In this document: positions 4,108 to 23,701 of the stretch, in pieces | Position numbering within the stretch: position 1 is the first letter of the stretch | How the letters are laid out: each line of letters opens with the position of its first letter | Assembly (NCBI GenBank): GCA_964444995.1 | Contig: CAYUJH010000001.1 | Location: forward strand, 1-26,204 | DNA length: 26,204 nucleotides | DNA from: an uncultured Roseobacteraceae bacterium | GTDB lineage: Bacteria > Bacteroidota > Bacteroidia > Cytophagales > Flammeovirgaceae | Reading direction: 5' to 3' | Program-made: the position numbers and the translations under genes | Notes under the pieces: model-generated | Database searches by the model: none | What the model saw: the letters and a program-made list of their open reading frames with translations, nothing else | Told to the model about the DNA's origin: nothing

Positions 4108-4527
4108 ATGTTACAACCAAAAAGAGTAAAATTCAGAAAAAAGCAGAAGGGCAGGGTGCGCGGAGTCGCACAGCGTGGCCATACAATTTCCTTTGGTAGC
4201 TTTGGAATCAAGTCGCTAGAAGCTGGCTGGCTTACCTCGCGCCAAATTGAAGCTGCGCGTATAGCCCTAACCCGCTCTATGAAAAGAGAAGGTAAGGTAT
4301 GGATTCGCATCTTCCCCGATAAGCCTATCACCAAGAAGCCTGCCGAGGTACGTATGGGTAAAGGTAAAGGTGCTCCCGAGTACTGGGTAGCCACGATACG
4401 CCCGGGCACAATTCTTTTCGAGTCCGACGGTGTTGCCCTTGAAGTAGCAAAAGAGTCTATGCGTCTTGCTGCTCAGAAACTTCCCGTTAAAACAAAATTC
4501 GTTACACGCGTAGATTATAACGGTTAA
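4108..4527 (+). CDS. rplP: 50S ribosomal protein L16 (uL16)
   Basis: [16 protein letters not shown]...[23 protein letters not shown]. Confidence 0.99.
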
Positions 4528-4533
4528 TAAGCC

Positions 4534-4860
4534 ATGAAACAACAGGTAGTAGAATATAGAAACATGAGTGTTGCAGATTTGCACGGAAGCATAGCCGCAG
4601 AAGAGCGCGAGCTACAACGCCTAAAGTTTGCCCACGCCATCACTCCGTTGGCAGACCCCAGCCGCATCACGAAGACCCGCAAGGCTATTGCCACGATGAA
4701 AACCATCCTCAGCGAGCGCGTAGCCGAAAGTCTGAGCACAAAAATCGCAAGTGGTGAAATCACCCTAGAGAACATCTATGCTCACTTGGGTAAAGGAGAG
4801 TATCCTATCACATTAAGAAAATCGAGAGTTAAAAGCCTGTTTGCCCAACACGGTAAATAA
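4534..4860 (+). CDS. rpmC: 50S ribosomal protein L29 (uL29) with about 46-aa C-terminal extension
   Basis: Core aa 1-62 (ELQRLKFAHAITPLADPSRITKTRKAIATMKTILSER) in the syntenic slot between rplP and rpsQ; the ORF continues to 108 aa. Confidence 0.95.
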   Translation: MKQQVVEYRNMSVADLHGSIAAEERELQRLKFAHAITPLADPSRITKTRKAIATMKTILSERVAESLSTKIASGEITLENIYAHLGKGEYPITLRKSRVKSLFAQHGK

Positions 4861-4871
4861 AATAAACGAAG

Positions 4872-5129
4872 ATGGAAGAAAGGAAACGCAGAAAAGAAAG
4901 AATAGGCATGGTAGTAAGCAACAAGATGCAATCTTCGATTGTCGTTGTGGTGGAAAGAAAGCTCAAACACCCTATCTACGGGAAATTCACCAAAAAAACT
5001 ACCCGATTCATGGCTCACGATGAGCAGAACCAATGCCAAATCGGCGATAAAGTTCGCATCATGGAAACGCGCCCCTTGAGCAAAAATAAAAGATGGCGTC
5101 TTGTAGAAATCATAGAAAGAGCGCGCTAA
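4872..5129 (+). CDS. rpsQ: 30S ribosomal protein S17 (uS17)
   Basis: [14 protein letters not shown]...HPIYGKF...HDEQN...[14 protein letters not shown]. Confidence 0.99.
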
Positions 5130-5174
5130 TACCCACTATACACACAAAGGTTTCAAGTTCAAATTTGTTTAGAG

Positions 5175-5543
5175 ATGATACAGCAAGAATCAAGATTAAC
5201 CGTAGCCGATAATAGTGGTGCCAAAGAAGTGCTTTGTATCCGCGTACTCGGAGGTACAGGCAAACGCTATGCCTCTGTAGGAGATAAAATTGTAGTAACC
5301 GTTAAGTCGGCCATTTCTTCGAGCAACCTCAAGAAAGGAACAGTCTCTAAAGCTGTCATTGTGCGCACTAAGAAAGAAGTGAGAAGAAAAGACGGTTCGT
5401 ACATTCGCTTCGAAGACAACGCCGCCGTATTGCTCAACAACAACAATGAGCCACGTGGTACCCGCATCTTCGGGCCTGTTGCGCGCGAGTTGCGTGAAAA
5501 GCAATTCATGAAAATAGTTTCGTTAGCTCCTGAAGTATTGTAG
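5175..5543 (+). CDS. rplN: 50S ribosomal protein L14 (uL14)
   Basis: [17 protein letters not shown]...[10 protein letters not shown]...[13 protein letters not shown]. Confidence 0.99.
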
Positions 5544-5545
5544 CA

Positions 5546-5878
5546 ATGAGTAGTAAAGTAAAAATCAAAATAAAGAAAGGCGATAGCGTGCGTGTAATCG
5601 CAGGAAACCACAAAGGTAAAGAAGGAAAAGTCCTTAAAGTCCTGCAAGAAAAAGGCCGCGCCATTGTTGAAGACACCAACATTATCACAAAACACGTGAA
5701 GCCTTCGGCCAATAAGCCCGAAGGAGGTGTGCAGCGAACCGAAGCTCCTATCGAGTTAAGCAATCTTATGTTGCTCGACCCCAAGACAGGAGAACCTACA
5801 CGCGTAGGACGTAAGATTGACGAAAAGACTGGAAAGTTAAAAAGATACGCTAAGAAAACCGGAGAATTCATTGACTAA
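5546..5878 (+). CDS. rplX: 50S ribosomal protein L24 (uL24)
   Basis: KOW motif [24 protein letters not shown]...[11 protein letters not shown]. Confidence 0.99.
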
Positions 5879-6423
5879 TGGCGGCACCTAGATTAAAAAA
5901 GAAGTACCAGGAAGAGATTGCACCGATGCTTAAAGAAAAATTTGAGCTAAAAACGGTTATGCAAGTTCCCAAATTAGAGAAGATTTCCATCAACCGAGGC
6001 ATCGGCGAAGCAGTTGCCGATAAAAAGTTGGTAGATATTGGCCTAGAAGAGCTTACGATCATTGCAGGTCAGAAAGCTGTACCTACGATTGCCAAAAAAT
6101 CAGTCTCTAACTTTAAATTGCGCGAAGGAATGCCGATTGGAGCGCGCGTTACCTTGCGCGGAGACCGCATGTACGAGTTCTTAGACAGACTCGTAACGAT
6201 TGCCCTCCCGCGTGTGCGCGACTTTAAAGGCGTAAGCGACAAGAGCTTCGACGGACGAGGCAACTACACACTCGGCGTGAAAGAGCAAATCATTTTCCCT
6301 GAAATCTCGATTGATAAGGTGAAAAAAATTGCTGGTCTCGACATTACGTTCGTCGTCAAATCAGAGTCCGACGAGCAAAGTTATGAGTTGCTGAAAGCCC
6401 TCGGAATGCCTTTTAAAAAATAA
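5878..6423 (+). CDS. rplE: 50S ribosomal protein L5 (uL5)
   Basis: [14 protein letters not shown]...[13 protein letters not shown]...[10 protein letters not shown]...[10 protein letters not shown]; TAATG stop/start overlap with rplX. Confidence 0.99.
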
Positions 6424-6437
6424 AAATAACAAGAGAA

Positions 6438-6707
6438 ATGGCTAAAGAATCAATCAAAGCACGTGAGAGAAAGCGTGAAAAATTGGTGGCAAAGTATGCA
6501 AAAAAGCGTGCAGAGCTGAAAGAACAAGGGGATTATTTGGCGCTCGATAAATTGCCCAGAAATGCATCACCCGTGCGCCTGCACAACCGCTGTAAACTCA
6601 CCGGACGCCCCAAGGGCTACATGAGACGGTTTGGTATATCTAGGGTAACATTTCGGGAGTTAGCTTCACAGGGTAAGATTCCGGGAGTTACTAAGGCAAG
6701 TTGGTAG
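6438..6707 (+). CDS. rpsN: 30S ribosomal protein S14 (uS14), 89-aa zinc-independent form
   Basis: MAKES...[31 protein letters not shown]...PGVTKASW. Confidence 0.99.
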
Positions 6708-6760
6708 TGTACACACGCCAAGTTTCAAACTGCGATCGAAGAAATTAAATAGATAATGTA

Positions 6761-7159
6761 ATGACAGATCCAATAGCTGATTACTTAACGAGATTAAGAA
6801 ACGCCATTAAAGCTAATCATCGTATAGTCGAGATTCCAGCCTCCAATATCAAAAAAGAGATTACTAAAGTGCTCTACGATAAAGGCTACATACAAGGATA
6901 TAAGTTTGTGGACGGAGGAAACACACAGGGGATTATCAAAATCGCCCTGAAGTATAACCCCAAAACAAAACTTTCCGCTATGGTGCACCTAGAGCGTGCC
7001 AGCCGTCCTGGTTTGCGCAAATACTCAAGAGCCGACGGAATGCCACGTGTACTCAATGGCTTAGGCATCGCCATCGTATCCACTTCGCGTGGGGTCATGA
7101 CCGATAAAGAAGCGAGAAGCCTGCACGTAGGCGGCGAGGTGCTCTGCTATGTTTACTAA
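6761..7159 (+). CDS. rpsH: 30S ribosomal protein S8 (uS8)
   Basis: MTDPIADYLTRLRNA...SRPGLRKY...GLGIAIVSTSRGVMTDKEAR...GGEVLCYVY. Confidence 0.99.
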   Translation: MTDPIADYLTRLRNAIKANHRIVEIPASNIKKEITKVLYDKGYIQGYKFVDGGNTQGIIKIALKYNPKTKLSAMVHLERASRPGLRKYSRADGMPRVLNGLGIAIVSTSRGVMTDKEARSLHVGGEVLCYVY

Positions 7160-7176
7160 TATAAAAAGATAAAGTT

Positions 7177-7734
7177 ATGTCTCGAATAGGAAGTAGTCCC
7201 ATTAAAATACCCGCAAATGTTAAGGTAAATGTGGAACAAGGCGTAGTAACGGTAGAAGGCCCAAAAGGAAAACTCACACAGCACATCGCCGCCGATATTG
7301 AGTTTGCACTCGAAGATGGTCAGTTTACCCTCACACGTAAGTCGGATAGCAAACCCGATAAGGCTAAGCACGGTCTGTACCGCTCGCTAATTGCTAATAT
7401 GGTTACAGGCGTAACAGAAGGTTATAAACATACCCTCGAACTTGTGGGCGTAGGTTTTAAGGCCGAAGCGCGCAGTAAACAACTCTTGGAGATGAGCCTT
7501 GGGTATTCTCACAGCGTGTATTTCCAACTTCCCGACGGAGTATCCGCTGCTACAGAAACACTGAAAGGTAAAAGCCCTACGATTACGCTTGAAAGCATTG
7601 ATAAGCAACTTTTGGGGCAAATCTCTGCCAAACTCAAGTCGCTACGGAAAGTAGAACCGTACAAAGGAAAAGGTATCCGCTTCAAAGGCGAGCAAATTAG
7701 AAGAAAAGCAGGTAAGACTGGAGGTAAGAAATAA
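7177..7734 (+). CDS. rplF: 50S ribosomal protein L6 (uL6)
   Basis: MSRIG...VEGPKGKL...HGLYRSLIANMVTGV...EPYKGKGIRF. Confidence 0.99.
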   Translation: MSRIGSSPIKIPANVKVNVEQGVVTVEGPKGKLTQHIAADIEFALEDGQFTLTRKSDSKPDKAKHGLYRSLIANMVTGVTEGYKHTLELVGVGFKAEARSKQLLEMSLGYSHSVYFQLPDGVSAATETLKGKSPTITLESIDKQLLGQISAKLKSLRKVEPYKGKGIRFKGEQIRRKAGKTGGKK

Positions 7735-7743
7735 TCAATAACG

Positions 7744-8094
7744 ATGAAACAGACTAAAACTTTGAGAAGACTGCGCATCAAAAGAAGCATCCGAAGTAAA
7801 ATTTCGGGTACTGCTGCGCGTCCGCGTATGTCAGTCTTTAAAAGCAACACAGGCATTTACGTACAGCTCATTGACGACACAATAGGCAAGACACTTGTAT
7901 CTGCTTCTTCGCGCGAACTTTCCGATGCAAAGAGCGTGAACGTGGCAATTGCTAAGCACGTAGGCGAGAAAATAGCCGAAAGAGCAAAAGAGCAGGGCAT
8001 ACAGACCGTAGTGTTCGACCGTAACGGCTATTTGTATCACGGTAAAGTGAAAGCATTGGCCGATGGCGCACGAGAAGCAGGGTTACAATTTTAA
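7744..8094 (+). CDS. rplR: 50S ribosomal protein L18 (uL18)
   Basis: [10 protein letters not shown]...[27 protein letters not shown]. Confidence 0.99.
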
Positions 8095-8108
8095 AAATCA
8101 CCAGAAAC

Positions 8109-8627
8109 ATGAACGACAAATTCAATAAAAAAGTAAGGCCAACTGACACTGAGTTAAAAGAGCGTGTGGTAGCCATCAAAAGAGTCGCCAAGGTGGTAAA
8201 AGGTGGTAGAAGATTTAGCTTCTCTGCCATCGTTGTAGTGGGCAACGGCAATGGTACAGTAGGTTATGGCTTGGGTAAAGCCAACGAGGTAACCGATGCA
8301 ATTACAAAAGGTATCGACGACGCGAAGAAAAACCTCATCACCGTACCGGTGCTTAAAGGAACTATCCCTCATTCCATGGAAGGCAAATACAGTGGAGGCT
8401 TTGTGCTATTGAAACCCGCTTCGGCAGGTACAGGCGTAATTGCCGGTGGTGCAATGCGTGCCGTACTCGAGTCGGCAGGGATCAAAGACGTGCTTGCAAA
8501 ATCTAAAGGCTCGTCAAACCCTCACAACGTAGTAAAAGCTACTTTTGATGCACTTGCCAAGATGCGCGACCCTCGTTCCGTAGCAATTCAGCGAGGAATC
8601 TCCCTCAATAAAGTTTTTAATGGTTAA
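8109..8627 (+). CDS. rpsE: 30S ribosomal protein S5 (uS5)
   Basis: [21 protein letters not shown]...GTGVIAGG...[12 protein letters not shown]. Confidence 0.99.
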
Positions 8628-12523: not shown

Positions 12524-13513
12524 ATGTCAATATTAGCCTTTCAAATGCCCGATAACGTGGTGATGCAAAAAGCAGATAACTTCCACGGTCTCTTTGAGTT
12601 TAAACCGCTTGAAAGAGGATACGGCGTTACTATCGGAAATTCTCTGAGAAGAATTTTACTATCCTCCTTGGAAGGGTATGCGATTATAGGGGTAAAATTC
12701 CCGAACGTGCTTCACGAGTTCTCTTCCATTGACGGCGTGGTGGAAGACGTAACGGAGATTATCCTGAACCTAAAAACAATTCGTTTTAAAAAGGTTGGTG
12801 AAAATAACGCAACGCGCATCAACGTGCAGGTAAGCGGAAAAGATGTGTTCAAGGCCGAAGACATAGCCAACTTTACAAGCGACTTTAAGGTATTGAACCC
12901 CGAGGCGGTTATCTGCCACCTCGATCCTTCGGTTACACTTCAAGTAGAGCTTGTGCTCTCGAAAGGACGTGGCTACGTACCTGCTGAAGATAATAAAGAT
13001 ACAGAGCAAGCACTTGGATATATCCCTATCGACGCCATTTTTACCCCTATCAAAAACGTAAAGTACAGCGTGGAGAATACAAGGGTAGAACAGCGGACAG
13101 ACTACGAAAAGCTTCTCTTAGAAATTGAAACCGATGGTTCTATCCACCCAGAAGATGCCTTGAAGGGTGCGGCCAATATTTTGATACAGCATTTTATGCT
13201 CTTCTCTGACCAAACGATGACTTTCCAACACGAAGACAAGGCGGAGGAAGAACCTATTGACGAAGAATATCTACGTATGCGTAAGTTGCTCAAGAGTTCT
13301 TTGAGCGACCTTGACCTTTCGGTACGCGCCTTTAACTGTTTGAAAGCAGCCGATGTGCGCACATTGGGCGACCTAGTTAGCCTTGAGATTGCAGATATGA
13401 TGAAGTTCAGAAATTTTGGCAAAAAATCGCTCACAGAGCTTGAGCAGCTCGTTGCCGAAAAAAATCTAACGTTCGGACTCGACGTATCCAAGTATCGGTT
13501 AGATGAAGACTAG
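12524..13513 (+). CDS. rpoA: DNA-directed RNA polymerase subunit alpha
   Basis: [24 protein letters not shown]...IDAIFTPI...[10 protein letters not shown]...RNFGKKSL. Confidence 0.99.
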
Positions 13514-13552
13514 CCCCAGACCATTCGGCTTAAAAAAGAAGATAATAATACA

Positions 13553-14065
13553 ATGAGACACGGTAAGAAAATTAATCATTTAGGCAGAACTGCCTCTCAT
13601 CGGAAATCTATGCTTTCTAACATGGCGGTTTCCTTGATTATGCACAAGAGAATCTCCACAACGTTGGCTAAAGCTAAAGAACTTAGAAAGTATGTGGAAC
13701 CCCTCGTTACGAAGAGTAAGGATGACTCTACACATGCACGCAGAGTGGTGTTCGCTTACTTGCAAGACAACGCGGCCATCAACGAGCTGTTCAATAATGT
13801 ATCTAACAAGGTGGCAGACCGCCCTGGAGGATATACGCGTATCATCAAAACGGGCAACCGGTTGGGTGATAATGCTGAAACGTGCATCATCGAACTAGTA
13901 GATTTTAACGAGTTGTTACTTGCTAGCGACAGCGAAGGAAAAGCTACGAGAAGACGACGTAAGAAGAAGTCGAACGTAGAAGCAGCGCCTGCAACCGAGG
14001 CGGCCGTAGAAACTACAACGCCGCAAGAAGCCGACGACGCACCTGCTAAAGAAGAAAAAAAATAA
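13553..14065 (+). CDS. rplQ: 50S ribosomal protein L17 (bL17) with basic/Ala-Glu-rich C-terminal tail
   Basis: [20 protein letters not shown]...[10 protein letters not shown]...[10 protein letters not shown]...RLGDNA. Confidence 0.99.
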
Positions 14066-14095
14066 GCCAAAATGAAATAAATTTTGTGCGCTATG

Positions 14096-14129
14096 GGGAA
14101 ATGATTGTACAGTCATTTCCCTTTTTTTT
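14096..14129 (+). terminator. Rho-independent terminator of the ribosomal operon
   Basis: Perfect 9-bp stem GGGAAATGA (14096-14104)/TCATTTCCC (14113-14121) followed by T8 (14122-14129), 30 nt after the rplQ stop. Confidence 0.9.
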
Positions 14130-14292
14130 GAGCATACCACAGCTCACGGCAGGCCGAGTGCCTGTTCAAGAAGTTATAAGGCATATGCTTTTGTTTGTAC
14201 TTTTCGCTAAGGGTAAAAAAGCAAGCATTTGTCGGAATACTCGTGCAAATTCCCTTTATTTGAACCTAAATTTTAGTCCTACAATACGCTAA

Positions 14293-15387
14293 ATGATGAC
14301 TTCTAAACTTCAAGCAGGTAGATTATTGTTACAAGACGGCACATCGTTCGCCGGCAAGATGGTAGGCCACGACGGTCTTTCTAGTGGAGAAATTTGCTTC
14401 AATACTGGTATGACCGGCTACCAAGAAATTTATACCGACCCCTCTTACTATGGGCAAATTATCGTAACAACCAATGCACATATTGGCAACTACGGGGTGA
14501 TGAACATGGAGGTAGAGTCGGGGAGTGTGCAGGTGAGAGGCGTAGTGATTAATAGTTTTGCTCATATTTTTTCTCGCAGTAAGGCATTGGCTAGCCTGCA
14601 AAAATATCTTGCCGATAACCAAGTAGCCGGTATCTGTGAGGTGGACACGCGCAGTTTGGTGCGTCATATCCGTAAGTATGGTGCTATGAATGCCGTGCTT
14701 ACAGCTGAGACCCGCTTGGAAGAAGCGTGCAAAGTATTGGCCGATACACCTAGTATGGACGGGCTAGAACTAGCCTCGCAGGTGAGCACAAAACAGGTGT
14801 ACGATGTGGGTAGTGGAGAATATCGTGTGGCCGTGCTCGATTTGGGGGTCAAACTCAATATCTTGCGCAGCTTTGTCGCTCGAAATTGTACGCTGAAGGT
14901 ATTTCCTCACGATACGCCCTTAGCCGATATGCTTGCATGGGAGCCCGACGGCTTTTTTCTTTCCAACGGCCCGGGAGACCCTGCCGCCATGCCCGATACA
15001 ATTGCCTGCGTTGCTCAGATGATTGACACGCAAAAACCTGTATTTGGCATTTGTCTGGGGCATCAAATGATTGCCTCCTCTCAAGGGGTTGGTACATATA
15101 AAATGCACCACGGTCATCGGGGCTTAAATCACCCTATCAAAAACTTGCGCACAGGCTTGTGCGAGATTACCTCACAAAATCATGGTTTTACGGTAAGTGA
15201 AGAGGCTGTGCGTAAAAATACGGCCATAGAGGTTACGCACATTAACTTAAACGACCAGACCATTGAGGGAATTCGGTTGAAAGACCGCCCGGTATTTTCG
15301 GTGCAATATCATCCTGAGGCTTCGCCGGGTCCGCACGACTCACACTATCTGTTTGATGAGTTTGTCGCTTCATTGGCAAGCCGATAA
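14293..15387 (+). CDS. carA: Carbamoyl-phosphate synthase small (glutaminase) subunit
   Basis: GEICFNTGMTGYQEIYTDPSYYGQI, LSNGPGDP, catalytic Cys in FGICLGHQ, ITSQNHGF, VQYHPEASPGPHD. Tandem ATG at 14293/14296 makes the exact start ambiguous. Confidence 0.97.
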   Translation: MMTSKLQAGRLLLQDGTSFAGKMVGHDGLSSGEICFNTGMTGYQEIYTDPSYYGQIIVTTNAHIGNYGVMNMEVESGSVQVRGVVINSFAHIFSRSKALASLQKYLADNQVAGICEVDTRSLVRHIRKYGAMNAVLTAETRLEEACKVLADTPSMDGLELASQVSTKQVYDVGSGEYRVAVLDLGVKLNILRSFVARNCTLKVFPHDTPLADMLAWEPDGFFLSNGPGDPAAMPDTIACVAQMIDTQKPVFGICLGHQMIASSQGVGTYKMHHGHRGLNHPIKNLRTGLCEITSQNHGFTVSEEAVRKNTAIEVTHINLNDQTIEGIRLKDRPVFSVQYHPEASPGPHDSHYLFDEFVASLASR

Positions 15388-15402
15388 GTTAGGGGAGGGT
15401 AT

Positions 15403-16524
15403 ATGCGTATTGGGATTGTGGCAAATACAGCTTGGAACGTGGCAAACTTCCGCCGAAACTTATTAGAGGCGTTTCGCGAAGAGTGCCATGAGGTGTGGAT
15501 ATTTGCCCCTACCGATGCGCACGCAGCAAAACTTATTGCTGCAGGGGCATACTTTGTACACGTCCCTTTGCAAAATAAAGGTGCCAATCCTATCCGCGAC
15601 TTCTACTACGCATGGTCATTATATCGAAAGTATCGCCGGCATCGGCTCGATGTGGTACTACATTTTACGGTGAAACCCAATATTTATGGCACGTTGGCTG
15701 CTCGTTTAGCAGGCATACCTTGTATTAATAATGTTACAGGGCTGGGCACAGTGTTTTTACACGATAACCTCAAAACAAGCTTGGCTAAATGGCTGTACCG
15801 CTTTAGTTTTCGATTTCCGAAGCTCATCTTTTTCCAAAATGCCGACGACCGTGCCTTATTTGCCAAAGAACGCTTGCTTACATCGGGTGTGCCTACGGAA
15901 GTACTGCCCGGCTCGGGAGTGGACACTGCCTATTTTGCTCCGCAGCCGCGTACTGCAAAAGCGCGGAGATTTACCTTTTTGATGATTGCACGGCTACTGT
16001 TCGATAAGGGCGTGCGAGAATACGTAGAAGCTGCACGAAAGCTAAAGCCTATGAGCGAGGCGCTCTCGTTTCAGTTGTTGGGTACTTTGGAGACAGAGGC
16101 CGGACTTGGCCTGACTGCTGCGCAGGTAGCCCAATGGGAAGCAGATGGACTTGTTGAATACTTAGGCACAACCGACGACGTGCGCCCCTTTATTGCCGAT
16201 GCCGACTGCGTAGTGTTGCCTTCGTATCGTGAGGGGACGCCACGGGCATTGCTCGAGGCTGCTAGTATGGCGAAGCCTTTGATTGCCACCAACGTAGCTG
16301 GCTGTAAAGAGGTAGTGGCCGAAGGGGAGAATGGCTGGTTGTGTGCCCTAAAAGATGCGGACGATTTGGCAGAAAAAATGACTCGAATGTGGGTATGTAG
16401 CCCAGCAGAGCGCGACCGAATGGGCCAAAATAGCCGCGTGTTAGCCGTACAGCGTTTCGACCATACACTGGTTACCACCGCTTATCAAAGAGCGATTGCT
16501 CGCCTAGAAACAAAAGTTGTGTGA
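15403..16524 (+). CDS. Glycosyltransferase family 4 (GT-B fold, CapM/PglA-like)
   Basis: N-terminal IVANTAWNVANFRRNL, HFTVKPNIYG, FQNADD, PGSGVD, ARLLFDKGVREY, EX7E motif VLPSYREGTPRALLEAASM. Confidence 0.9.
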   Translation: MRIGIVANTAWNVANFRRNLLEAFREECHEVWIFAPTDAHAAKLIAAGAYFVHVPLQNKGANPIRDFYYAWSLYRKYRRHRLDVVLHFTVKPNIYGTLAARLAGIPCINNVTGLGTVFLHDNLKTSLAKWLYRFSFRFPKLIFFQNADDRALFAKERLLTSGVPTEVLPGSGVDTAYFAPQPRTAKARRFTFLMIARLLFDKGVREYVEAARKLKPMSEALSFQLLGTLETEAGLGLTAAQVAQWEADGLVEYLGTTDDVRPFIADADCVVLPSYREGTPRALLEAASMAKPLIATNVAGCKEVVAEGENGWLCALKDADDLAEKMTRMWVCSPAERDRMGQNSRVLAVQRFDHTLVTTAYQRAIARLETKVV

Positions 16525-16548
16525 AAAGTATATACAAACGATGGTAGT

Positions 16549-16995
16549 ATGAAGGATATTTTGATTTTAAATGGCCCTAACCTGAACTTGCTTGGCAAGC
16601 GCGAACCCGATATTTACGGCCGAGAAACTTTTGAGGACTACTTGGTTACCCTGAAAACACGTTTTGAACATAAAGCATTCTTGCACTACATACAATCGAA
16701 TCACGAGGGTGTATTGCTCGATACGCTGCACGCGCAGGGCTTTACTATCGGCGGAATCGTTTTCAATGCTGGCGGCTATACCCACACGTCCGTAGCGCTT
16801 GGCGATGCGATTGCCGCAATTGCTGCCCCGGTGGTAGAAGTCCATATTTCCAACGTATATGCTCGAGAAAACTTCCGCCACCACAGTTATTTGAGTAAGC
16901 ACTGCGCTGGGGTAATCGCCGGTTTTGGTTTTATCGGATACGCACTGGCTATCGAGTATTTGATAAGTTTAGGACAGCAGCAGGCTTCATATTAA
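16549..16995 (+). CDS. aroQ: Type II 3-dehydroquinate dehydratase
   Basis: LNGPNLNLLGKREPDIYG, QSNHEG, NAGGYTHTSVALGDA, EVHISNVYARE. Confidence 0.97.
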   Translation: MKDILILNGPNLNLLGKREPDIYGRETFEDYLVTLKTRFEHKAFLHYIQSNHEGVLLDTLHAQGFTIGGIVFNAGGYTHTSVALGDAIAAIAAPVVEVHISNVYARENFRHHSYLSKHCAGVIAGFGFIGYALAIEYLISLGQQQASY

Positions 16996-19019
16996 TCTTC
17001 CGAAGAGGTGTAGCGCACAATTTTTTCGTATAGTACGTGCTTATCGAAGGGCTTGAAGATGTAGTCGTCCATACCGGCGGCGTAACAGCGTTCGGCTTCG
17101 CCTTTTAGCGCAGAGGCCGTCATGGCGATGATAGGCACTTGGCTTTTGGCTACGTTGAGGTCTTTGCGGATAGCTTTTGTGGTGTCGTAGCCGTCGAGTT
17201 CGGGCATGTGCACATCCATTAGCACGAGGTCGTAATGTTTTTGTTTGAACATTTCGAGGGCTTTTTTTCCATCTTCTGCTACATCTACTTGGTAGTTCCA
17301 TTTTTTGAGAAAACTTACCACTACTTTTTGATTTACCTCGTTGTCTTCCGCTACTAGGATAGCTTTTGCCGTTCCTTGGCGGGGAATGAGCGGCACTTTG
17401 GTAGTAGGTTTGCCTACGAGCGACTCTTTATTTTTCTTGTAGGGGATATCGAACGAAAAAGTGCTTCCTTTTCCCATTTCGCTTTCCAAGAACATCTGTC
17501 CGTTTTGCAGCTCTACCAATTTGCGCGAGATGGTCAGTCCTAGCCCTGTACCGCCGTATTTGCGAGTCGTGGAGGTAGAGGCCTGTGTGAAACTGCTAAA
17601 AATGAGTTCGAACTTGTTGCGCGGGATGCCAATTCCGGTATCTTTTACAAAGAAGCGGAGCGTAACGGTATCCTCGTCTTCGCTGATGACTTTCGTGCCG
17701 AGCGTAATGCTGCCCTTGATGGTAAATTTAATAGCATTGCTAAGCAGATTAAGTAAAATTTGACCCAAGCGCACAGGGTCGCCAAGTACGGTTTTAGGAA
17801 TATCTGGTGCTAAATCTACGAGGACGGCTAGTTTTTTTTCTTCTAGGCGAGGTCTGCAGATTTCGATAGTAGTTTGTACGGTGGAAGCAGGGCGAAGGAC
17901 GGTTTCTTCAAAGACAAACTTGCCCGACTCTATTTTCGACACGTCGAGCACATCGTTGATAAGCACCATGAGATGCTCGGCAGAGTTTCTCATAATCTGA
18001 AAGAATTCATTTTGCTCTTTATTGAGTTCGGTTTCTTCCAGATGTTGCAGCGTGCCTACGATGCCGTTCATCGGCGTGCGTATTTCATGACTCATGTTAG
18101 CCAAAAATTCTTGCTTTGCTCTTGCCGAGCGTTCGGCAGCCTCTGCGGAAAGTTCGGCAGCTTTTGCCGAGCGTTCGGCGATTTCCTTGGCTTCTACGAG
18201 TTCTTTGTTTTGCTGCTCTATCTCGGCGAGTCTTTGCTCAATTTCTGCCAGCATCTGGTTAAATCCTTCGATAAGTATGCCGATTTCGTCGCTTCTATCT
18301 TGCTGAATTCGAATGGAGTAGTCGCGTTTGTTAGAGATTTGGTGGGTAATATGGCTTAGGTCAAGGATAGGCTTTGAAACAATTTTTTGCAGGTTGATAG
18401 AGAGCAAAAAGGTAAATACGGAGGTAATGAGCAAAATGGACAGCACCACTACGGCGTAGTTGAAATAGCGGTCGGCGAGCATATCGAGGTTAGCACGCAG
18501 ATAGACCGTGCTAATTTTTTCGTTTTCATCCTTGATAGGCACGTACACCTCTAGGTAGTTCTGAAATAGCTGAAAATTCACATCTTCTTCTACGAAAGGA
18601 GGGATGAAGCCTTGCAGAACGATGCCGGTAGTATCTTGCATGAGCAAGGCTGCTACGTTGCGTACACTGTCGGGGAGGTTGCTGACTACTTGCCGGTCGT
18701 AGAGGGCAAAGAGTTGGTTGTTGCCATCGAAAATACAGCCGTGGGTAATGCGGCCATCGTTATGAAGAATCCGCAGAAGACTCTCTACGGCCGATATTTG
18801 GTTGTTAAACCGTACCGTTACGTCATTTTGGTTGCCTACTATGGCGGCGGTCTGTTTTAGGTCTTCGATAGTCTGCTGCCGGGTGTTGAGAAAATCGAGC
18901 ACAAGGAAGGCTAAAAATGCAAATAGCAGCGAGAACACACTTGCTACCATTAAAAGCAAGGTTATTTTATTTTTGATAGACGACTTGCCGCCGAAGAAAA
19001 TAGGTTTACTTATTCCCAT
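16992..19019 (-). CDS. Membrane-bound hybrid sensor histidine kinase: TM1 - CHASE8-like periplasmic domain - TM2 - HAMP - HisKA - HATPase_c - REC
   Basis: H-box FLANMSHEIRTPMNG, N-box QILLNLLSNAIKFT, G1 VKDTGIGI, G2 GGTGLGLTIS; REC ILVAEDN...DLVLMDVHMP...AMTA...YIFKPF; HAMP PILDL...DYSIR...DEIGILIEGFNQML. The YfiN-like sensor assignment is from recalled similarity plus the adjacent YfiR. Confidence 0.93.
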   Translation of the reverse strand: MGISKPIFFGGKSSIKNKITLLLMVASVFSLLFAFLAFLVLDFLNTRQQTIEDLKQTAAIVGNQNDVTVRFNNQISAVESLLRILHNDGRITHGCIFDGNNQLFALYDRQVVSNLPDSVRNVAALLMQDTTGIVLQGFIPPFVEEDVNFQLFQNYLEVYVPIKDENEKISTVYLRANLDMLADRYFNYAVVVLSILLITSVFTFLLSINLQKIVSKPILDLSHITHQISNKRDYSIRIQQDRSDEIGILIEGFNQMLAEIEQRLAEIEQQNKELVEAKEIAERSAKAAELSAEAAERSARAKQEFLANMSHEIRTPMNGIVGTLQHLEETELNKEQNEFFQIMRNSAEHLMVLINDVLDVSKIESGKFVFEETVLRPASTVQTTIEICRPRLEEKKLAVLVDLAPDIPKTVLGDPVRLGQILLNLLSNAIKFTIKGSITLGTKVISEDEDTVTLRFFVKDTGIGIPRNKFELIFSSFTQASTSTTRKYGGTGLGLTISRKLVELQNGQMFLESEMGKGSTFSFDIPYKKNKESLVGKPTTKVPLIPRQGTAKAILVAEDNEVNQKVVVSFLKKWNYQVDVAEDGKKALEMFKQKHYDLVLMDVHMPELDGYDTTKAIRKDLNVAKSQVPIIAMTASALKGEAERCYAAGMDDYIFKPFDKHVLYEKIVRYTSSED
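18122..18184 (-). repeat. Three imperfect 21-nt tandem units (heptad duplications) in the kinase signalling helix
   Basis: ttgccgagcgttcggcagcct / ctgcggaaagttcggcagctt / ttgccgagcgttcggcgattt, encoding AERSAK-AAELSAE-AAERSAR. Confidence 0.75.
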
Positions 19020-19572
19020 ACGCCTCTATTGCTTTTGCCATTTGCCATAGCCGAGAATCTATGATTAGTCGAGCACTGTTGGCAGCATCGGAATTGATAG
19101 TGAACCGGTTGCGCATGTCTATGTTCATGATACCTCCGTTGGCACAAAAATCATCGATATCATCGCCTACCGTCAGGATACCTTGCCCCCGGTAGCGAAA
19201 ACTGTTAATTTCTGCTAATATTTCGCGTGCTTCGTATTCTTTGGATTTTGTAACAAAAATGATGTGGCTTCCTTTGAGGCCTGAAAGCGTATTGGCGCGT
19301 TTTATCTCCCACGTTTTGCCTCGGATTCTTCTGTTTTTTAGGGTGTTTTCGATGATGTCGCCGAAGGGGTCGTCGCCAAGAATACCTAGAACAATTTTAT
19401 CTTGACTGCTAATTTTTTCGGGCCAAGTTACAAAGCGTGCGAAGTTATAGAGCATCATGCCGCGTATCTCGTATGCGCTAAATTGAGCCTGTGCCTTTTG
19501 ACTGCCCACGCCGAGCGCAAGCAGCAGAAACAGTAAGAAAATTCTCAGGCTATTTTGGAAGACAGTTTTCAA
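19006..19572 (-). CDS. YfiR/HmsC-family (DUF4154) periplasmic protein
   Basis: 188 aa, TTG start, signal peptide ending AQA-Q. Family motifs EIRGMMLYNFARFVTWP, LGILGDDPFG, HIIFV, ILTVGD..DFCANGGIMNI, FTINSDAA. Overlaps the kinase start by 14 nt. Confidence 0.88.
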   Translation of the reverse strand: MKTVFQNSLRIFLLFLLLALGVGSQKAQAQFSAYEIRGMMLYNFARFVTWPEKISSQDKIVLGILGDDPFGDIIENTLKNRRIRGKTWEIKRANTLSGLKGSHIIFVTKSKEYEAREILAEINSFRYRGQGILTVGDDIDDFCANGGIMNIDMRNRFTINSDAANSARLIIDSRLWQMAKAIEAYGNK

Positions 19573-19597
19573 GCGTTATTCGGTTTAGAAGGCTTCA

Positions 19598-19605
19598 CAA
19601 ATATA
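19598..19605 (-). promoter_or_regulatory. Candidate -7 element (TATATTTG) upstream of the YfiR-family gene
   Basis: Reverse complement of CAAATATA; TTG at 19628-19630 is 22 nt upstream (slightly long spacer). Lies within an AT-rich inverted repeat CACAAA...TTTGTG. Confidence 0.45.
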
Positions 19606-19626
19606 TTTTTTTTGTGGATACGCGTC

Positions 19627-21951
19627 TCAATTATTTGTTACCCCGAATAGACTTACTTCAACAAGCAAACCAGAGTTGCCTTCCTTATTAGCTAAGGGTT
19701 GTAAATTCCCAAAGGAAATGCGCTCGGGCGATATGCCTCGGCGCTGGAAAAGTTGCTGAAGTTGGTCGAGCACTGAGTTGTAGGCTCCTTGCGAGGCAGG
19801 CAGGCCGTAGCCGTTTATTTTCAACGAAATTTGAGCATTGTTTTCTAAAAATGAACAAACCTCCTCAAAATCACTTAGCTGGTCATCGCTCAGTTTGCCT
19901 GTATTTTCCGAGAGCGCAAGCGTATGGGCAAGAAGCGTACGCCCTTCCTGACTGCCTACCATGCTTTGGGTAAATACCAGCTTATTAGAGGTGATAGGAT
20001 TCATCATATCGGTAAGTATTTCGGCGTTGCTTTTTTCGAAGGCCTCGCCGACCATATCAAACAGCTTGTTGTATCGTTGCATGTCGTCTTGTGCAAAGCG
20101 GGCGTCTTCGGGAAAAGCATTTCGGGGGTCTTCCAGCTCGTTGAGGCGTAACCAGCCCTCGGTGTCGGCGTTGTTTACTAAGTATTGCAGCAGCAAACCG
20201 AGCGCATCGTAGCGCAGTTCGGTCGTATCTTTGGGCATTTGCTCGAACAGTCTAATTGAAGATGCCTTGGTAATTGAGTTGGGAAGTTTTCCTACTACTT
20301 TGCCGAAGAGTTTGTACTCGTTGAGGTAGATTTCTTGGCTAAATTCGTAGCTGTATGTGTTCTCGGGTATATCGAGATCCACCGTGGCGATTTCTACCGG
20401 GCTTTTTCCCTCCCCAAGGCTGACCTCTACGGCGAGTCTGTAAGAGCGTGCCGGCCGCAAGATAGCCACATAGTTGCCCGATACCGTATCGGGGTCATAG
20501 ACATACCGCTCTATGGCGTTGGTGCCCAAATCGGTAACCTTTAAGTACGCTGGTAATTTTTTATCGCCCTGCTGTACTTTCATGCTGCCGGTGAGCATAG
20601 TAAGTGCAACTTCTTTGCGCGGCTTGAAAATACTAACGATGTCGTGCCCGCCGAGCGATTGTGTATTGTCGATTCGGTTAGACGACAGGTAGGAGTATTG
20701 TTCATCGGGTACTTGGGTGAAGTAGTCGTCGTCGAACACCGAGTTGATAGGATAGCCCAAGTTGCGGGGCAGGCTCCAGCTGCCATCATCTTCTCGGTCG
20801 CTCAAAAAAATATCCAGTCCGCCCATAGAGCCTTTCTGGTCGGAGCTAAAGTAGAGGCTACGCGTATCGGGATGCACAAAAGGATTAATTTCGTTTTGGG
20901 GAGAGTTGACCTGCGCTCCGAGGTTTTCAGGCTCGCCCCAATCTTTGCCTGCTCTTGTGCTTCGGTATAGATCGAAGCCACCTAAGCCGCCCGGCCGATT
21001 GCTCGCAAAATAAATTGCGTTGCCGGATTCTGAAAAACATGCGCCGCGTTCTTCGTATTTCGAGTTTATTTTGCCCGAAATTTTACGAGGATTCCCCCAT
21101 TTGCCGCGTTTGTGTTCGCTGATGTACAGGTCGCCATATTCTTGCCCCTCTTCGGCTATGCTCAAAAGCAGCATACTGTTATCCGACGAGAGGGAGAGCG
21201 TGGTGATTTTTCTGCCACGTAGCTCGCCGCTGAGTGGAAAGCCCCAGTCGAGGCCGCGCCGAAACGAAGTAAAGACCGATTCTTCTTCCTGCTGTGCGTC
21301 GGTGGGTAGTAGAAAGGCCTGCTCGTCGTTGAGGACAAGCTGAACGGTGTTGTCGGGCCGGTCGGAACTAAAGATAAGCATACGGCGGTCGTTGGAAATA
21401 AGGGGCGCGTACTCGCGGTACGAGGTGTTCACCGGGTAGTCGATTACCTGTACAAGGTACTGATTCTTAGGGCGTTTTAGGTATCTTTCGCCGTCTTCGC
21501 ACATTTCTATCCAGCGCTTTGTATCGCCGAAGGTATCGGGCAGATTTTTCTTATCGAGTTCGTCGATGTAGCGGTTAAAGGCGTTTATGGCATCGATGAA
21601 ACGATAGTCGCGGTGGTAACAACGTCCTAAGTAGTAGTGTACCTGCTCGGGGACTTGTCCGTTGTTGTGCCGTTGGGCTAGCTCGAAATATTCTCGAGCT
21701 TTGCGGCTGTTGTGGTTAGGAGAGTGAAAATAGCAAATCCCTATTTTGTAGAGCAGTAGAGGATCTTGAATTTCTTTAGAGAACAGAGTCATGTAAAGTT
21801 TCCACGCACTCGCATAGTCTGCTGCCTCCAAGTACTCGTCTGCGAGTTCCATATCGCTCGGTGCGTTGTCCTGCGCGACGCAAAAATTACCTACCGACAG
21901 CGTCAAGGGAGCACAAACCAATATGCGAAGAATATATTTTTTTAAACTCAT
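19627..21951 (-). CDS. PorE-like periplasmic protein: TPRs - PD40/TolB-like propeller - beta-sandwich - degenerate OmpA_C-like domain
   Basis: Start re-called at ATG 21951 (MSLKKYIL...CVA-Q, signal peptide I). TPRs LLYKIGICYF and VHYYLGRCYH; PD40 repeats EYAPLISNDRRMLIFSSDRP, ACFSESGNAIYFASNRPGGLGGFDLY, NPFVHPDTRSLYFSS..GSMGGLDIF; C-terminal LKINGY...LFQRRGISPERI. Confidence 0.85.
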   Translation of the reverse strand: MSLKKYILRILVCAPLTLSVGNFCVAQDNAPSDMELADEYLEAADYASAWKLYMTLFSKEIQDPLLLYKIGICYFHSPNHNSRKAREYFELAQRHNNGQVPEQVHYYLGRCYHRDYRFIDAINAFNRYIDELDKKNLPDTFGDTKRWIEMCEDGERYLKRPKNQYLVQVIDYPVNTSYREYAPLISNDRRMLIFSSDRPDNTVQLVLNDEQAFLLPTDAQQEEESVFTSFRRGLDWGFPLSGELRGRKITTLSLSSDNSMLLLSIAEEGQEYGDLYISEHKRGKWGNPRKISGKINSKYEERGACFSESGNAIYFASNRPGGLGGFDLYRSTRAGKDWGEPENLGAQVNSPQNEINPFVHPDTRSLYFSSDQKGSMGGLDIFLSDREDDGSWSLPRNLGYPINSVFDDDYFTQVPDEQYSYLSSNRIDNTQSLGGHDIVSIFKPRKEVALTMLTGSMKVQQGDKKLPAYLKVTDLGTNAIERYVYDPDTVSGNYVAILRPARSYRLAVEVSLGEGKSPVEIATVDLDIPENTYSYEFSQEIYLNEYKLFGKVVGKLPNSITKASSIRLFEQMPKDTTELRYDALGLLLQYLVNNADTEGWLRLNELEDPRNAFPEDARFAQDDMQRYNKLFDMVGEAFEKSNAEILTDMMNPITSNKLVFTQSMVGSQEGRTLLAHTLALSENTGKLSDDQLSDFEEVCSFLENNAQISLKINGYGLPASQGAYNSVLDQLQQLFQRRGISPERISFGNLQPLANKEGNSGLLVEVSLFGVTNN

Positions 21952-22101: not shown

Positions 22102-22197
22102 CGCGCTCAAACCATTCGCTTGGTGCATTTGCACGAAAAGATGAGAATATGCTAAAAAAGGAGGGCATTTTTGGGCAGCGAAGTGCTAGAATGCAAC

Positions 22198-22254
22198 AGC
22201 CCCCCTTTGCCAAGTTGCCGCGCTGAATAGCGGTGGCAGGCGCAAAGGGGGGCT
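22198..22254. repeat. Long GC-rich inverted repeat (57-nt hairpin) downstream of the beta-propeller gene
   Basis: AGCCCCCCTTTGC (22198-22210) is the exact reverse complement of GCAAAGGGGGGCT (22242-22254); inner stem TTGCCGCGCT/AGCGGTGGCAG with GAAT loop; no T-tract on either side. Confidence 0.8.
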
Positions 22255-22279
22255 ATGGAAAAACGAAGCCGTAAAGCGC

Positions 22280-23560
22280 CTATGTACCCGACTTGGATAC
22301 CTTTAGTACTAGGGCTTCGTAGCCACTTTCTGCATCGTTGAGCAGGCCTGCTGCTACAATGCCGTCATCGTCGGCTTCTACTACCGAAAAGGCACGCTGT
22401 TCACTGCCATCCCCCAACGATTTTTGCCACACCTCTTTGCCTGTTTTATCTACTTTTACAAGGAACACCTTGTAGTTCTCGGCGGTCGCACCGGTACCGT
22501 TTGTGCCCTCTTTTACCACCTGCGTATAGCCTGCCGCCACAAAGTTACCATCTCTTGTTTCTATCACGTCGTAGAGTTCGTCGGTGCTCATTCCTCCGAA
22601 GGCTTTGTTCCATTGCTCATTGCCTTCTTTATCGGTTTTGATGAGCCAGCCGTCGAGACTAGCCACGGCAAAGGAGTAGGTATAACCGGCTATAAGGTAG
22701 CCACCGTCGCTCGTTTGGATAAGGGAGTTACTCATTTCATTGTCGCCCCCGCCAAATGTGCGGCTCCAAGTTAGCTCGCCATTGGTATCTATGTGCAGAA
22801 GCCATATGTCCCACTTGCCGTTGCCTTCCGACTCGGTATGGCCTACGAGTGTGTACCCTCCTTCTACTTTTACAAGGGCAGCCCCCTCTTCGCTTTTATC
22901 GCCGCCGTAGGTCTTCTCCCATTGCCGCTCGCCTGTTTCGCTGATTTTTACAAGGAAAATATCGGACGACTCTTTTTCTAGGCTTAGGGTTGAGCCAAGG
23001 ACGAGAAAGCCGCCATCGTGTGCCGGTACGATACTCCGCGCCTCGTCGATGCTTACCTCCGAACCGCTGTGCGAATAGGTTTTATTCCATAGTTCGTTGC
23101 CTTGCGCATCCACGCGCACTACCCACATATCTTTCAGCCCAGGGCCGCCGCCGTACGAGTCGGAGTTGCCCACAATCACAAAGTCGCCGTTGGGCAATTC
23201 TATCCCACGCGTGGCTTCGTCGGACTCGTTGCCGCCAATTTTCTTTTCCCATACCACGCCCCCTTGTGCAGTAAGGCGCAGCAGATACATGTGCGTAGCG
23301 CCACTCGCCGTGGCTGTGCGCCCTATCACCAAAAAACCGCCGGAAGATACGTTGATAATATCTTGCGCGGCATCGTAGCCTTTACCGCCGAAGGTGAGCC
23401 AAAAGTTGCTATGAGGCTGGCCTACATGAGTTGCCGCAGGCGTAGAGACGTGCGCGAGGGGAGGCGATGCATGCAGCACCGGAAAAAGCGAAGGGCTTGC
23501 CATGGCTGTTTGAAGACCTAACAGTATTGCACCAAGTAGCCCACGTATTACACATTTCAT
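22280..23560 (-). CDS. Secreted/periplasmic seven-bladed beta-propeller repeat protein
   Basis: Start re-called at ATG 23560 (MKCVIRGLLGAILLGLQTAMA-S signal peptide). Seven repeats of about 50-60 aa, W-x-K-T-[YF]-G-G...D-[EA]...[TS]-x-D-G-G-[FY]-x-x-x-G...D-x-W-L-x-K-x-D-x-x-G. Confidence 0.88.
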   Translation of the reverse strand: MKCVIRGLLGAILLGLQTAMASPSLFPVLHASPPLAHVSTPAATHVGQPHSNFWLTFGGKGYDAAQDIINVSSGGFLVIGRTATASGATHMYLLRLTAQGGVVWEKKIGGNESDEATRGIELPNGDFVIVGNSDSYGGGPGLKDMWVVRVDAQGNELWNKTYSHSGSEVSIDEARSIVPAHDGGFLVLGSTLSLEKESSDIFLVKISETGERQWEKTYGGDKSEEGAALVKVEGGYTLVGHTESEGNGKWDIWLLHIDTNGELTWSRTFGGGDNEMSNSLIQTSDGGYLIAGYTYSFAVASLDGWLIKTDKEGNEQWNKAFGGMSTDELYDVIETRDGNFVAAGYTQVVKEGTNGTGATAENYKVFLVKVDKTGKEVWQKSLGDGSEQRAFSVVEADDDGIVAAGLLNDAESGYEALVLKVSKSGT

Positions 23561-23701
23561 AGAGTTATATTTGTTTAATTTTTGAGTCAAAGCAAGACAT
23601 TTCAACAACGCCAAAAACTTGAATTGTTGCTAAGTATGCACCTACACAACGGATACTTAACAAATTTTATTTTTCAATACGCGGCCTCTGTGCTTGCTGG
23701 C

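Follow-up and report, generated by a model that had tools for sequence, protein, structure and literature searches.

The window analysed here, a stretch of 26,204 nucleotides (nt), is one entire contig of a metagenome-assembled genome (MAG; 1.85 Mb, 60% complete) and carries on its minus strand a triad of genes for a PorE-like protein, a periplasmic YfiR-like protein and a hybrid histidine kinase. The named relatives of the locus are Flammeovirga, Flexithrix, Algivirga and Flammeovirgaceae MAGs, which places this marine bacterium in Flammeovirgaceae, order Cytophagales. Our reading, which we hold with slightly better than even confidence, is that this triad is a lineage-specific variant of a widespread envelope sensor composed of an outer partner, a periplasmic YfiR-like protein and an inner-membrane CHASE8-HAMP transducer, and that the partner would govern the free YfiR-like protein acting on the kinase. 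An earlier note, made from the sequence alone, had described three co-oriented genes with a 54-nt gap between the partner and YfiR-like genes and a 14-nt overlap between the YfiR-like and kinase genes, and this layout is borne out by the coordinates of the open reading frames (ORFs):

19627..21951, minus strand: gene for the PorE-like partner, 774 amino acids (aa) from an ATG that aligns with the starts of orthologues

19006..19572, minus strand: gene for the YfiR-like (DUF4154) periplasmic protein, 188 aa, TTG start

16992..19019, minus strand: gene for the hybrid histidine kinase, 675 aa, with a first transmembrane segment (TM1), a periplasmic sensor, a second transmembrane segment (TM2), HAMP, a coiled coil, HisKA, HATPase and REC

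The partner ORF has an alternative upstream GTG start, which would lengthen the protein to 783 aa.

The two downstream proteins are readily placed. The 188-aa protein matches Pfam DUF4154 (PF13689, YfiR/HmsC-like) over the full model length (1.3e-28), confirming the YfiR-family identity first given to it, and its only NCBIfam match is NF053591, ‘TOL_0243 family YfiR-like periplasmic protein’ (86.1 bits, cut-off 125), of which it appears to be a divergent relative. It begins with a signal peptide (an N-terminal hydrophobic segment) and contains a single cysteine, C143, which is invariant in its clade. The kinase has two hydrophobic segments, at about aa 17-47 and at about aa 184-214, with some 140 aa of periplasmic sequence between them, and Pfam matches to HAMP (8e-9), HisKA, HATPase_c and Response_reg uphold the description of a two-transmembrane HAMP hybrid kinase with His-Asp output and no GGDEF domain. 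A CHASE8/YfiN-like sensor had also been proposed and appears likely, the window kinase scoring 23-25.5 bits, just short of the cut-off of 27, and 12 of 16 aligned relatives matching (best 7.7e-17). The N-terminal part of the kinase additionally matches NF053592, ‘sensor histidine kinase, YfiR-like protein-associated’ (171.2 bits, E 2.4e-50, cut-off 194). All catalytic motifs are intact, namely SHEIRTP (H311), NLLSNAIKFT (N box), DTGIGI (G1), GGTGLGL (G2), DLVLMD (D602) and K656. The sensor and receiver lie as follows:

18471..18878, minus strand: CHASE8-like periplasmic sensor (kinase aa 48-183), with a Flammeovirgaceae-specific insertion (alignment A3)

17019..17360, minus strand: receiver domain (kinase aa 554-667) with D602 in the motif DLVLMD; Pfam Response_reg, 2.2e-29

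The earlier note had likened the triad to YfiBNR, with the PorE-like protein possibly in the slot of YfiB; however, the nearest relative is a trio of TonB-dependent receptor, YfiR-like protein and kinase, and the partner occupies the slot of the receptor. It has neither a lipid anchor nor the Asp, Asn and Arg (D/N/R) residues of a peptidoglycan pocket. This trio, already modelled by NCBIfam as NF053590 (TOL_0244), NF053591 (TOL_0243) and NF053592 (‘HK near YfiR-like’), has a homologous YfiR-like protein and CHASE8-HAMP kinase sensor and the same gene order as the window, that is outer partner, YfiR-like, kinase. It differs in that its outer partner is a TonB-dependent barrel, whereas that of the window is a soluble TPR/propeller/OmpA-like protein. 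The YfiR-like protein (86 vs. 125 bits) and the kinase (171 vs. 194 bits) of the window both fall below the curated cut-offs, and the window kinase is not followed by a stand-alone receiver gene, which many loci of other phyla have. Neighbouring genes encode homologues of the YfiR-like protein and of the whole kinase, including its sensor, in Acidobacteriota, Geobacter, Pirellulales and Verrucomicrobiota. The upstream genes tested in Acidobacteriota, Geobacter, FCPU426 and Pirellulales all encode TonB-dependent receptors (5/5), and three receptors pass the NF053590 cut-off, two belonging to these loci (L036, L043) and one to a Cytophagales genome (L080). The triad would therefore seem to represent a known, though unstudied, module with a swapped partner and not a rewired YfiBNR. 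What appears to be new is the Cytophagales triad itself, which is near-universal in Flammeovirgaceae, together with the loss of the peptidoglycan pocket and the lack of a lipid anchor in its partner and the helical linker as a signature of YfiR-linked partners. Literature searches found no published study of YfiR-like/kinase modules and no experimental study of the catalogued NF053590-92 trio.

YfiBNR (TpbB/DgcN; P. aeruginosa, E. coli) and Yersinia HmsCDE share with the window the DUF4154 periplasmic protein and an inner-membrane transducer with HAMP and, probably, a CHASE8-like sensor, and the third envelope protein also has an OmpA-like fold (Foldseek template-modelling score (TM) to YfiB 0.58-0.62). 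The two systems differ in gene order and in output, which is HisKA-HATPase-REC in the window and GGDEF in YfiN, and YfiB is a small, peptidoglycan-binding outer-membrane lipoprotein, whereas the window partner is a multidomain non-lipoprotein of 774 aa with no peptidoglycan pocket.

The history of the module was approached with a maximum-likelihood tree of 87 DUF4154 domains (the midpoint root serving for drawing only) and a phylum sample of 400 Bacteroidota genomes from 180 genera. One YfiR-like clade (97/83) unites the partner-linked proteins of both orders, Cytophagales and Bacteroidales, with those of the pair-only loci of family f2 and of genome G004, and it stands beside the receptor-linked kinase type. 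Close relatives of the clade occur in 2 of the 400 sampled genomes, both as receptor trios. A further large DUF4154 clade of Cytophagales lacks a CHASE8 kinase. On the simplest reading, a PorE-family paralogue with an acquired helical linker replaced the receptor within Bacteroidota, and its OmpA pocket decayed later in Flammeovirgaceae.

Several other arrangements of DUF4154 genes were seen among the loci surveyed. In another Cytophagales family (L072, G039:C3:515322-527741, 4342-8552, minus strand), a canonical TPR-PD40-OmpA protein of 646 aa with no linker is encoded upstream of a DUF4154 gene of the kinase-less subfamily, followed by a 540-aa GAF-domain protein; by appearance this is an independent PorE-like/YfiR-like pairing. 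In L051 and L052 (G046 and G064; family f2, genus g38) a YfiR-like gene of the clade at about 5860-6582 is followed by a gene for a 1476-aa alpha-2-macroglobulin-like protein and not by a kinase gene. At L055 (G096:C4:170253-182693, 4418-8066, plus strand) a 435-aa protein with the beta-sandwich, the linker and a true OmpA domain, but with no TPR or propeller, precedes the YfiR-like gene of the clade, a 495-aa all-TPR protein follows it, and there is no kinase. Tandem DUF4154 genes without a CHASE8 kinase (L054, L058, L059, L073, L085) are common in other Cytophagales families, and some adjoin TonB-dependent receptors.

Within the family the triad is conserved. A census with the linker alignment (A6) covered 31 Flammeovirgaceae genomes of 16 genera. 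The partner gene is present in single copy in 27 of them (13 of the 16 genera), in 26 of these 27 it is followed directly by the YfiR-like gene, and a CHASE8 sensor falls within the 1.5-kb flank in 24. Spacing varies across loci, from overlaps to gaps of about 140 nt. Two Bacteroidales MAGs (L033 and L035, one of them Salinivirgaceae) have the same triad with different flanks and a partner with a genuine Pfam OmpA domain; the sensor insertion of the Flammeovirgaceae kinases sets these apart from the Bacteroidales ones. The earlier note had named a PorE-like gene not conserved beside the YfiR-kinase genes of relatives among the grounds for refuting its proposal, and the adjacency seen here does not refute it.

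Several observations weigh against a sensor that includes the partner. The wider synteny is also kept in Flammeovirgaceae (aroQ convergent to the kinase gene, a 444-aa gene upstream), so linkage there could partly be due to inheritance alone. Family f2 (L050, L053) has the YfiR-kinase pair with no adjacent partner gene, and in G004 the partner orthologue (L012/L095, G004:C3) and the YfiR-kinase pair (L089, G004:C2, 5842-8453) are on separate contigs, hence the partner is not obligatory in cis. The signalling unit may accordingly be seen as the YfiR-like protein and the kinase only, with the PorE-like gene encoding a co-transcribed envelope-integrity protein (Tol-Pal or CHU_0125-like) or a target of the system that makes no contact with the YfiR-like protein. 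This would suit the 10-30 paralogues of the partner architecture found per genome and the role of CHU_0125, a relative of the partner, in outer-membrane integrity (PMC5891637). We nevertheless regard it as rather unlikely, considering that a second order has the triad too, between other flanking genes, that the partner is single-copy and adjacent in nearly all genomes that have it, that its linker is restricted to YfiR-linked copies, and that an outer-envelope protein occupies the same slot in both the receptor trio and YfiBNR. The G004 kinase comes as two ORFs, one of 499 aa for the kinase and one of 159 aa for the receiver.

The partner protein was modelled with AlphaFold2 (AF2) from an alignment of 17 orthologues (predicted local distance difference test (pLDDT) 77.8). 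Its parts, with the beta-sandwich placed by the domain order of PorE (PMC7192894), are:

aa 1-27, N-terminal, minus strand: signal peptide of SPI type (...CVA/QD)

21475..21855, minus strand: TPR helical domain (aa 33-159), AF2 helices with pLDDT of about 85-97 and a weak Pfam TPR_16 match

20626..21456, minus strand: PD40/TolB-like beta-propeller (aa 166-442), three Pfam PD40 matches (1e-18) and AF2 model

20248..20601, minus strand: probable beta-sandwich (aa 451-568), AF2 strands at the position of PorE's carboxypeptidase-regulatory-like domain, the fold being named from the model

19945..20232, minus strand: helical linker (aa 574-669), two related motifs, RYDAL...D and D.YYTPL..., with low pLDDT (alignment A6)

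19642..19938, minus strand: degenerate OmpA-like domain (aa 672-770), beta-alpha-beta-alpha-beta-beta fold

Pfam TPR families are matched in 7 of the 17 orthologues, and in a Foldseek search of the PDB the complete 774-aa model matched generic beta-propellers only. Mean pairwise identity is highest in the propeller (41%), followed by the beta-sandwich (34%), the TPR domain (33%) and the linker (27%), with the OmpA-like domain evolving fastest (17.5%). The orthologues end the signal peptide in ..AQ or ..GQ and share no conserved cysteine behind it. The partner accordingly looks like an exported protein with no lipid anchor, in contrast to PorE and YfiB.

The linker is what distinguishes this protein from its many paralogues. 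A hidden Markov model built from Flammeovirgaceae linkers only also recognizes the YfiR-linked partners of the Salinivirgaceae MAG (31 bits), of family f5 (29 bits) and of the other Bacteroidales MAG (18 bits), while unlinked paralogues score at most 4 bits, and the linker occurs in none of the 400 genomes of the phylum sample. Judged from these profile scores, the helical linker is a signature of YfiR-linked partner proteins. A resemblance between the linker and the N-terminal ‘LEDLMNIEVTS’ region of the TonB-dependent receptors of the trio was considered and rejected (hhalign probability 0.1%).

The C-terminus of the partner is an OmpA-like fold, as three independent lines (profile, hhalign, and model with Foldseek) agree. 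The 774-aa protein of the window gets no OmpA match from Pfam, and the relationship is visible only through the family profile, hhalign and the modelled fold; a single-sequence phmmer search of aa 440-774 against PDB sequences likewise gave nothing meaningful. The profile of Flammeovirgaceae C-termini reaches MotY (7.7e-8) and PorE (6TOP, 1.6e-4) among PDB sequences, as well as Pal and OmpA and, weakly, YfiB. In hhalign, comparison with the true OmpA domains of three orthologues that do not belong to the family yields 97.2%. For aa 655-774 modelled on their own (pLDDT 80.7), the best Foldseek matches are OprF, PorE, A. baumannii OmpA, MotB, Pal and YfiB (TM 0.57-0.66).

In PorE the side chains of Asp576, Asn584 and Arg591 hold diaminopimelate, as in other OmpA-family proteins (PMC7192894). 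At the corresponding positions the window partner has L/gap/V, not one of 22 orthologues in Flammeovirgaceae retains the full set of residues, and the NRRVEI motif is gone in 22/22. The residues are canonical in the orthologues from the Salinivirgaceae MAG, the other Bacteroidales MAG and a second Cytophagales family, and in the Bacteroidales triad partners the OmpA domain is still a canonical one (Pfam 1e-14 to 1e-16, D/N/R intact). By this alignment, the window partner has none of the three peptidoglycan-binding residues.

These features also bear on how far the protein can be called PorE. The 774-aa protein had been described as having an architecture associated with PorE and with type IX secretion (T9SS); this architecture stands (TPR, PD40 propeller, beta-sandwich, OmpA-like fold), but the protein is not PorE and nothing links it to the T9SS. 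Both PorE (PG1058, Porphyromonas gingivalis) and CHU_0125 (Cytophaga hutchinsonii) have the same domain order, with TPR/propeller homology of E 1e-39 to 7e-46, and the C-terminal fold of the partner matches 6TOP. It could be argued that the partner is the organism's PorE and that the neighbouring pair regulates type IX secretion, given this shared domain order (PMC7192894) and the rank of NCBIfam PorE (NF052230) as second-best match of the partner. The match, however, reaches 136.2 bits against a cut-off of 600 and is limited to aa 34-443, as is that to CHU_0125 (NF053607; 157.1 bits, cut-off 620). In contrast to PorE and CHU_0125, the partner has an extra helical linker of 100 aa, a degenerate OmpA-like domain and no lipobox, and it is linked to a sensor pair and not to T9SS genes. 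Equivalents of D576/N584/R591 are absent, yet PorE cannot function without its OmpA_C-like domain (PMC12773672), and the genome holds other paralogues. We therefore consider it very improbable that the partner is PorE.

As to how the module might work, we infer the contacts between its proteins, the sign of the regulation, the stimulus and the downstream regulator as follows. In YfiBNR, the inhibitor of YfiN is YfiR, which is in turn sequestered by YfiB in its activated form bound to peptidoglycan (PMC3375315, PMC4887326). By analogy, the secreted YfiR-like protein would bind the periplasmic CHASE8-like domain of the kinase and set its activity, and the PorE-like paralogue, in the place held elsewhere by a TonB-dependent receptor, would control the amount of YfiR-like protein available to the kinase. 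The Flammeovirgaceae partner being soluble and its peptidoglycan pocket lost, input probably enters through the conserved TPR/propeller and the partner-specific linker, and probably not through cell-wall anchoring.

The analogy has its own difficulties. The partner is without the lipid anchor and the peptidoglycan-binding residues, the two features on which sequestration by YfiB depends, and since activation of YfiB is tied to peptidoglycan binding its mechanism is not simply transferable to a partner with neither. The YfiR-like protein, moreover, is only remotely like P. aeruginosa YfiR: the clade profile reaches it among PDB sequences at an E of about 0.7, and a single-sequence phmmer search against PDB sequences gave nothing meaningful. 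P. aeruginosa YfiR has two disulfides (Cys71-Cys110 and Cys145-Cys152; PMC4887326), whose cysteines the single-cysteine window protein does not have.

A different division of labor has been considered, in which the partner is the primary ligand sensor, its propeller/TPR part binding a periplasmic or cell-wall-derived molecule and the partner itself contacting the kinase sensor, with the YfiR-like protein as an adaptor or small-molecule co-sensor instead of a sequestered inhibitor. The conservation of the propeller beside a decaying OmpA-like end, the family-specific insertion in the kinase sensor and the binding of small molecules by P. aeruginosa YfiR (PMC4887326) are all in keeping with this. 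On the other side, no ligand or contact is known, and the pair-only loci show that a working kinase needs no more than the YfiR-like protein, and we find this arrangement improbable. Returning to a partner that acts by way of the YfiR-like protein, a broader and more speculative proposal, which we entertain as possible though doubtful, is that YfiR-like proteins are general periplasmic adaptors joining interchangeable outer partners (YfiB, TonB-dependent receptors, PorE-like proteins) to interchangeable inner-membrane transducers. Here, a soluble TolB-like protein would dock the YfiR-like protein through its two-helix linker and feed envelope status into the phosphorelay without peptidoglycan anchoring. 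If true, this mechanism would be distinct from the stretch-through-the-wall model of YfiB.

On the output side, a search for GGDEF (PF00990) found none in G000, G001, G007 and G009, three of these four family genomes being at least 97% complete, which fits a phosphorelay. Because no GGDEF enzymes were found in the four genomes searched, the signal is proposed to leave by His-Asp transfer, from H311 to D602 and then to an unlinked Hpt protein and response regulator. Neither an Hpt protein nor a response regulator is encoded locally in the window; stand-alone Hpt genes are present elsewhere in family genomes. In one Bacteroidales locus the kinase gene (756 aa) is followed by one for a 115-aa STAS-domain protein (L035, 10810-11157, plus strand), which hints at a partner-switching output there, and nothing comparable exists in the window.

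YfiBNR controls cyclic di-GMP (c-di-GMP) and biofilm persistence in proteobacteria and is, to our knowledge, the only understood YfiR system. Kinase-driving YfiR-like sensors form a much larger, unstudied set in genome data. The outer partner of these appears swappable, from a TonB-dependent receptor to a PorE-like protein with a working OmpA domain and then to a PorE-like protein with a dead one, and such natural variants provide a means of asking what the outer partner contributes. The module is a candidate envelope-stress input in a phylum with poorly known envelope signaling, in which no c-di-GMP synthase was found in the four genomes searched, and it is experimentally reachable as Flammeovirga and Flexithrix are culturable.

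The surroundings of the triad add a few smaller points. One further element lies between it and the next gene upstream:

22196..22256, minus strand: strong RNA hairpin separating the triad from the 444-aa gene upstream, free energy (dG) -39.8 kcal/mol, z -4.5, with 0/200 shuffles equally stable

This hairpin is likely a transcript boundary between the 444-aa gene and the triad. Scans for sigma-70 promoters and terminators found sites no more numerous than in shuffles, the sigma-70 model being unsuited to Bacteroidota promoters, and the hairpin alone is conspicuous. The 444-aa gene (22280-23614, minus strand) encodes a secreted repeat protein with G-G..D.A...DGG...G.T motifs and a weak arylsulfotransferase-propeller match; in most Flammeovirgaceae loci it is conserved immediately upstream of the partner gene (38-59% identity), but not in the Flexithrix or Bacteroidales loci. 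On the other side, housekeeping genes occupy 12524-16995 on the plus strand (rpoA, rplQ (L17), carA, a GT4 glycosyltransferase gene and aroQ), the convergent ends of aroQ and the kinase gene overlapping by 4 nt at 16992-16995. The minus strand past the triad carries NlpC/P60 and DUF3078 genes. Among public runs, only DNA runs from a stromatolite metagenome contain the stretch. Its closest relatives, L022 and L023, belong to the same genus and have YfiR-like proteins 64-66% identical to that of the window. They were deposited as ‘uncultured Roseobacteraceae’, an alphaproteobacterial name, whereas gene content and the other relatives point to Flammeovirgaceae, and the name is probably a labeling error.

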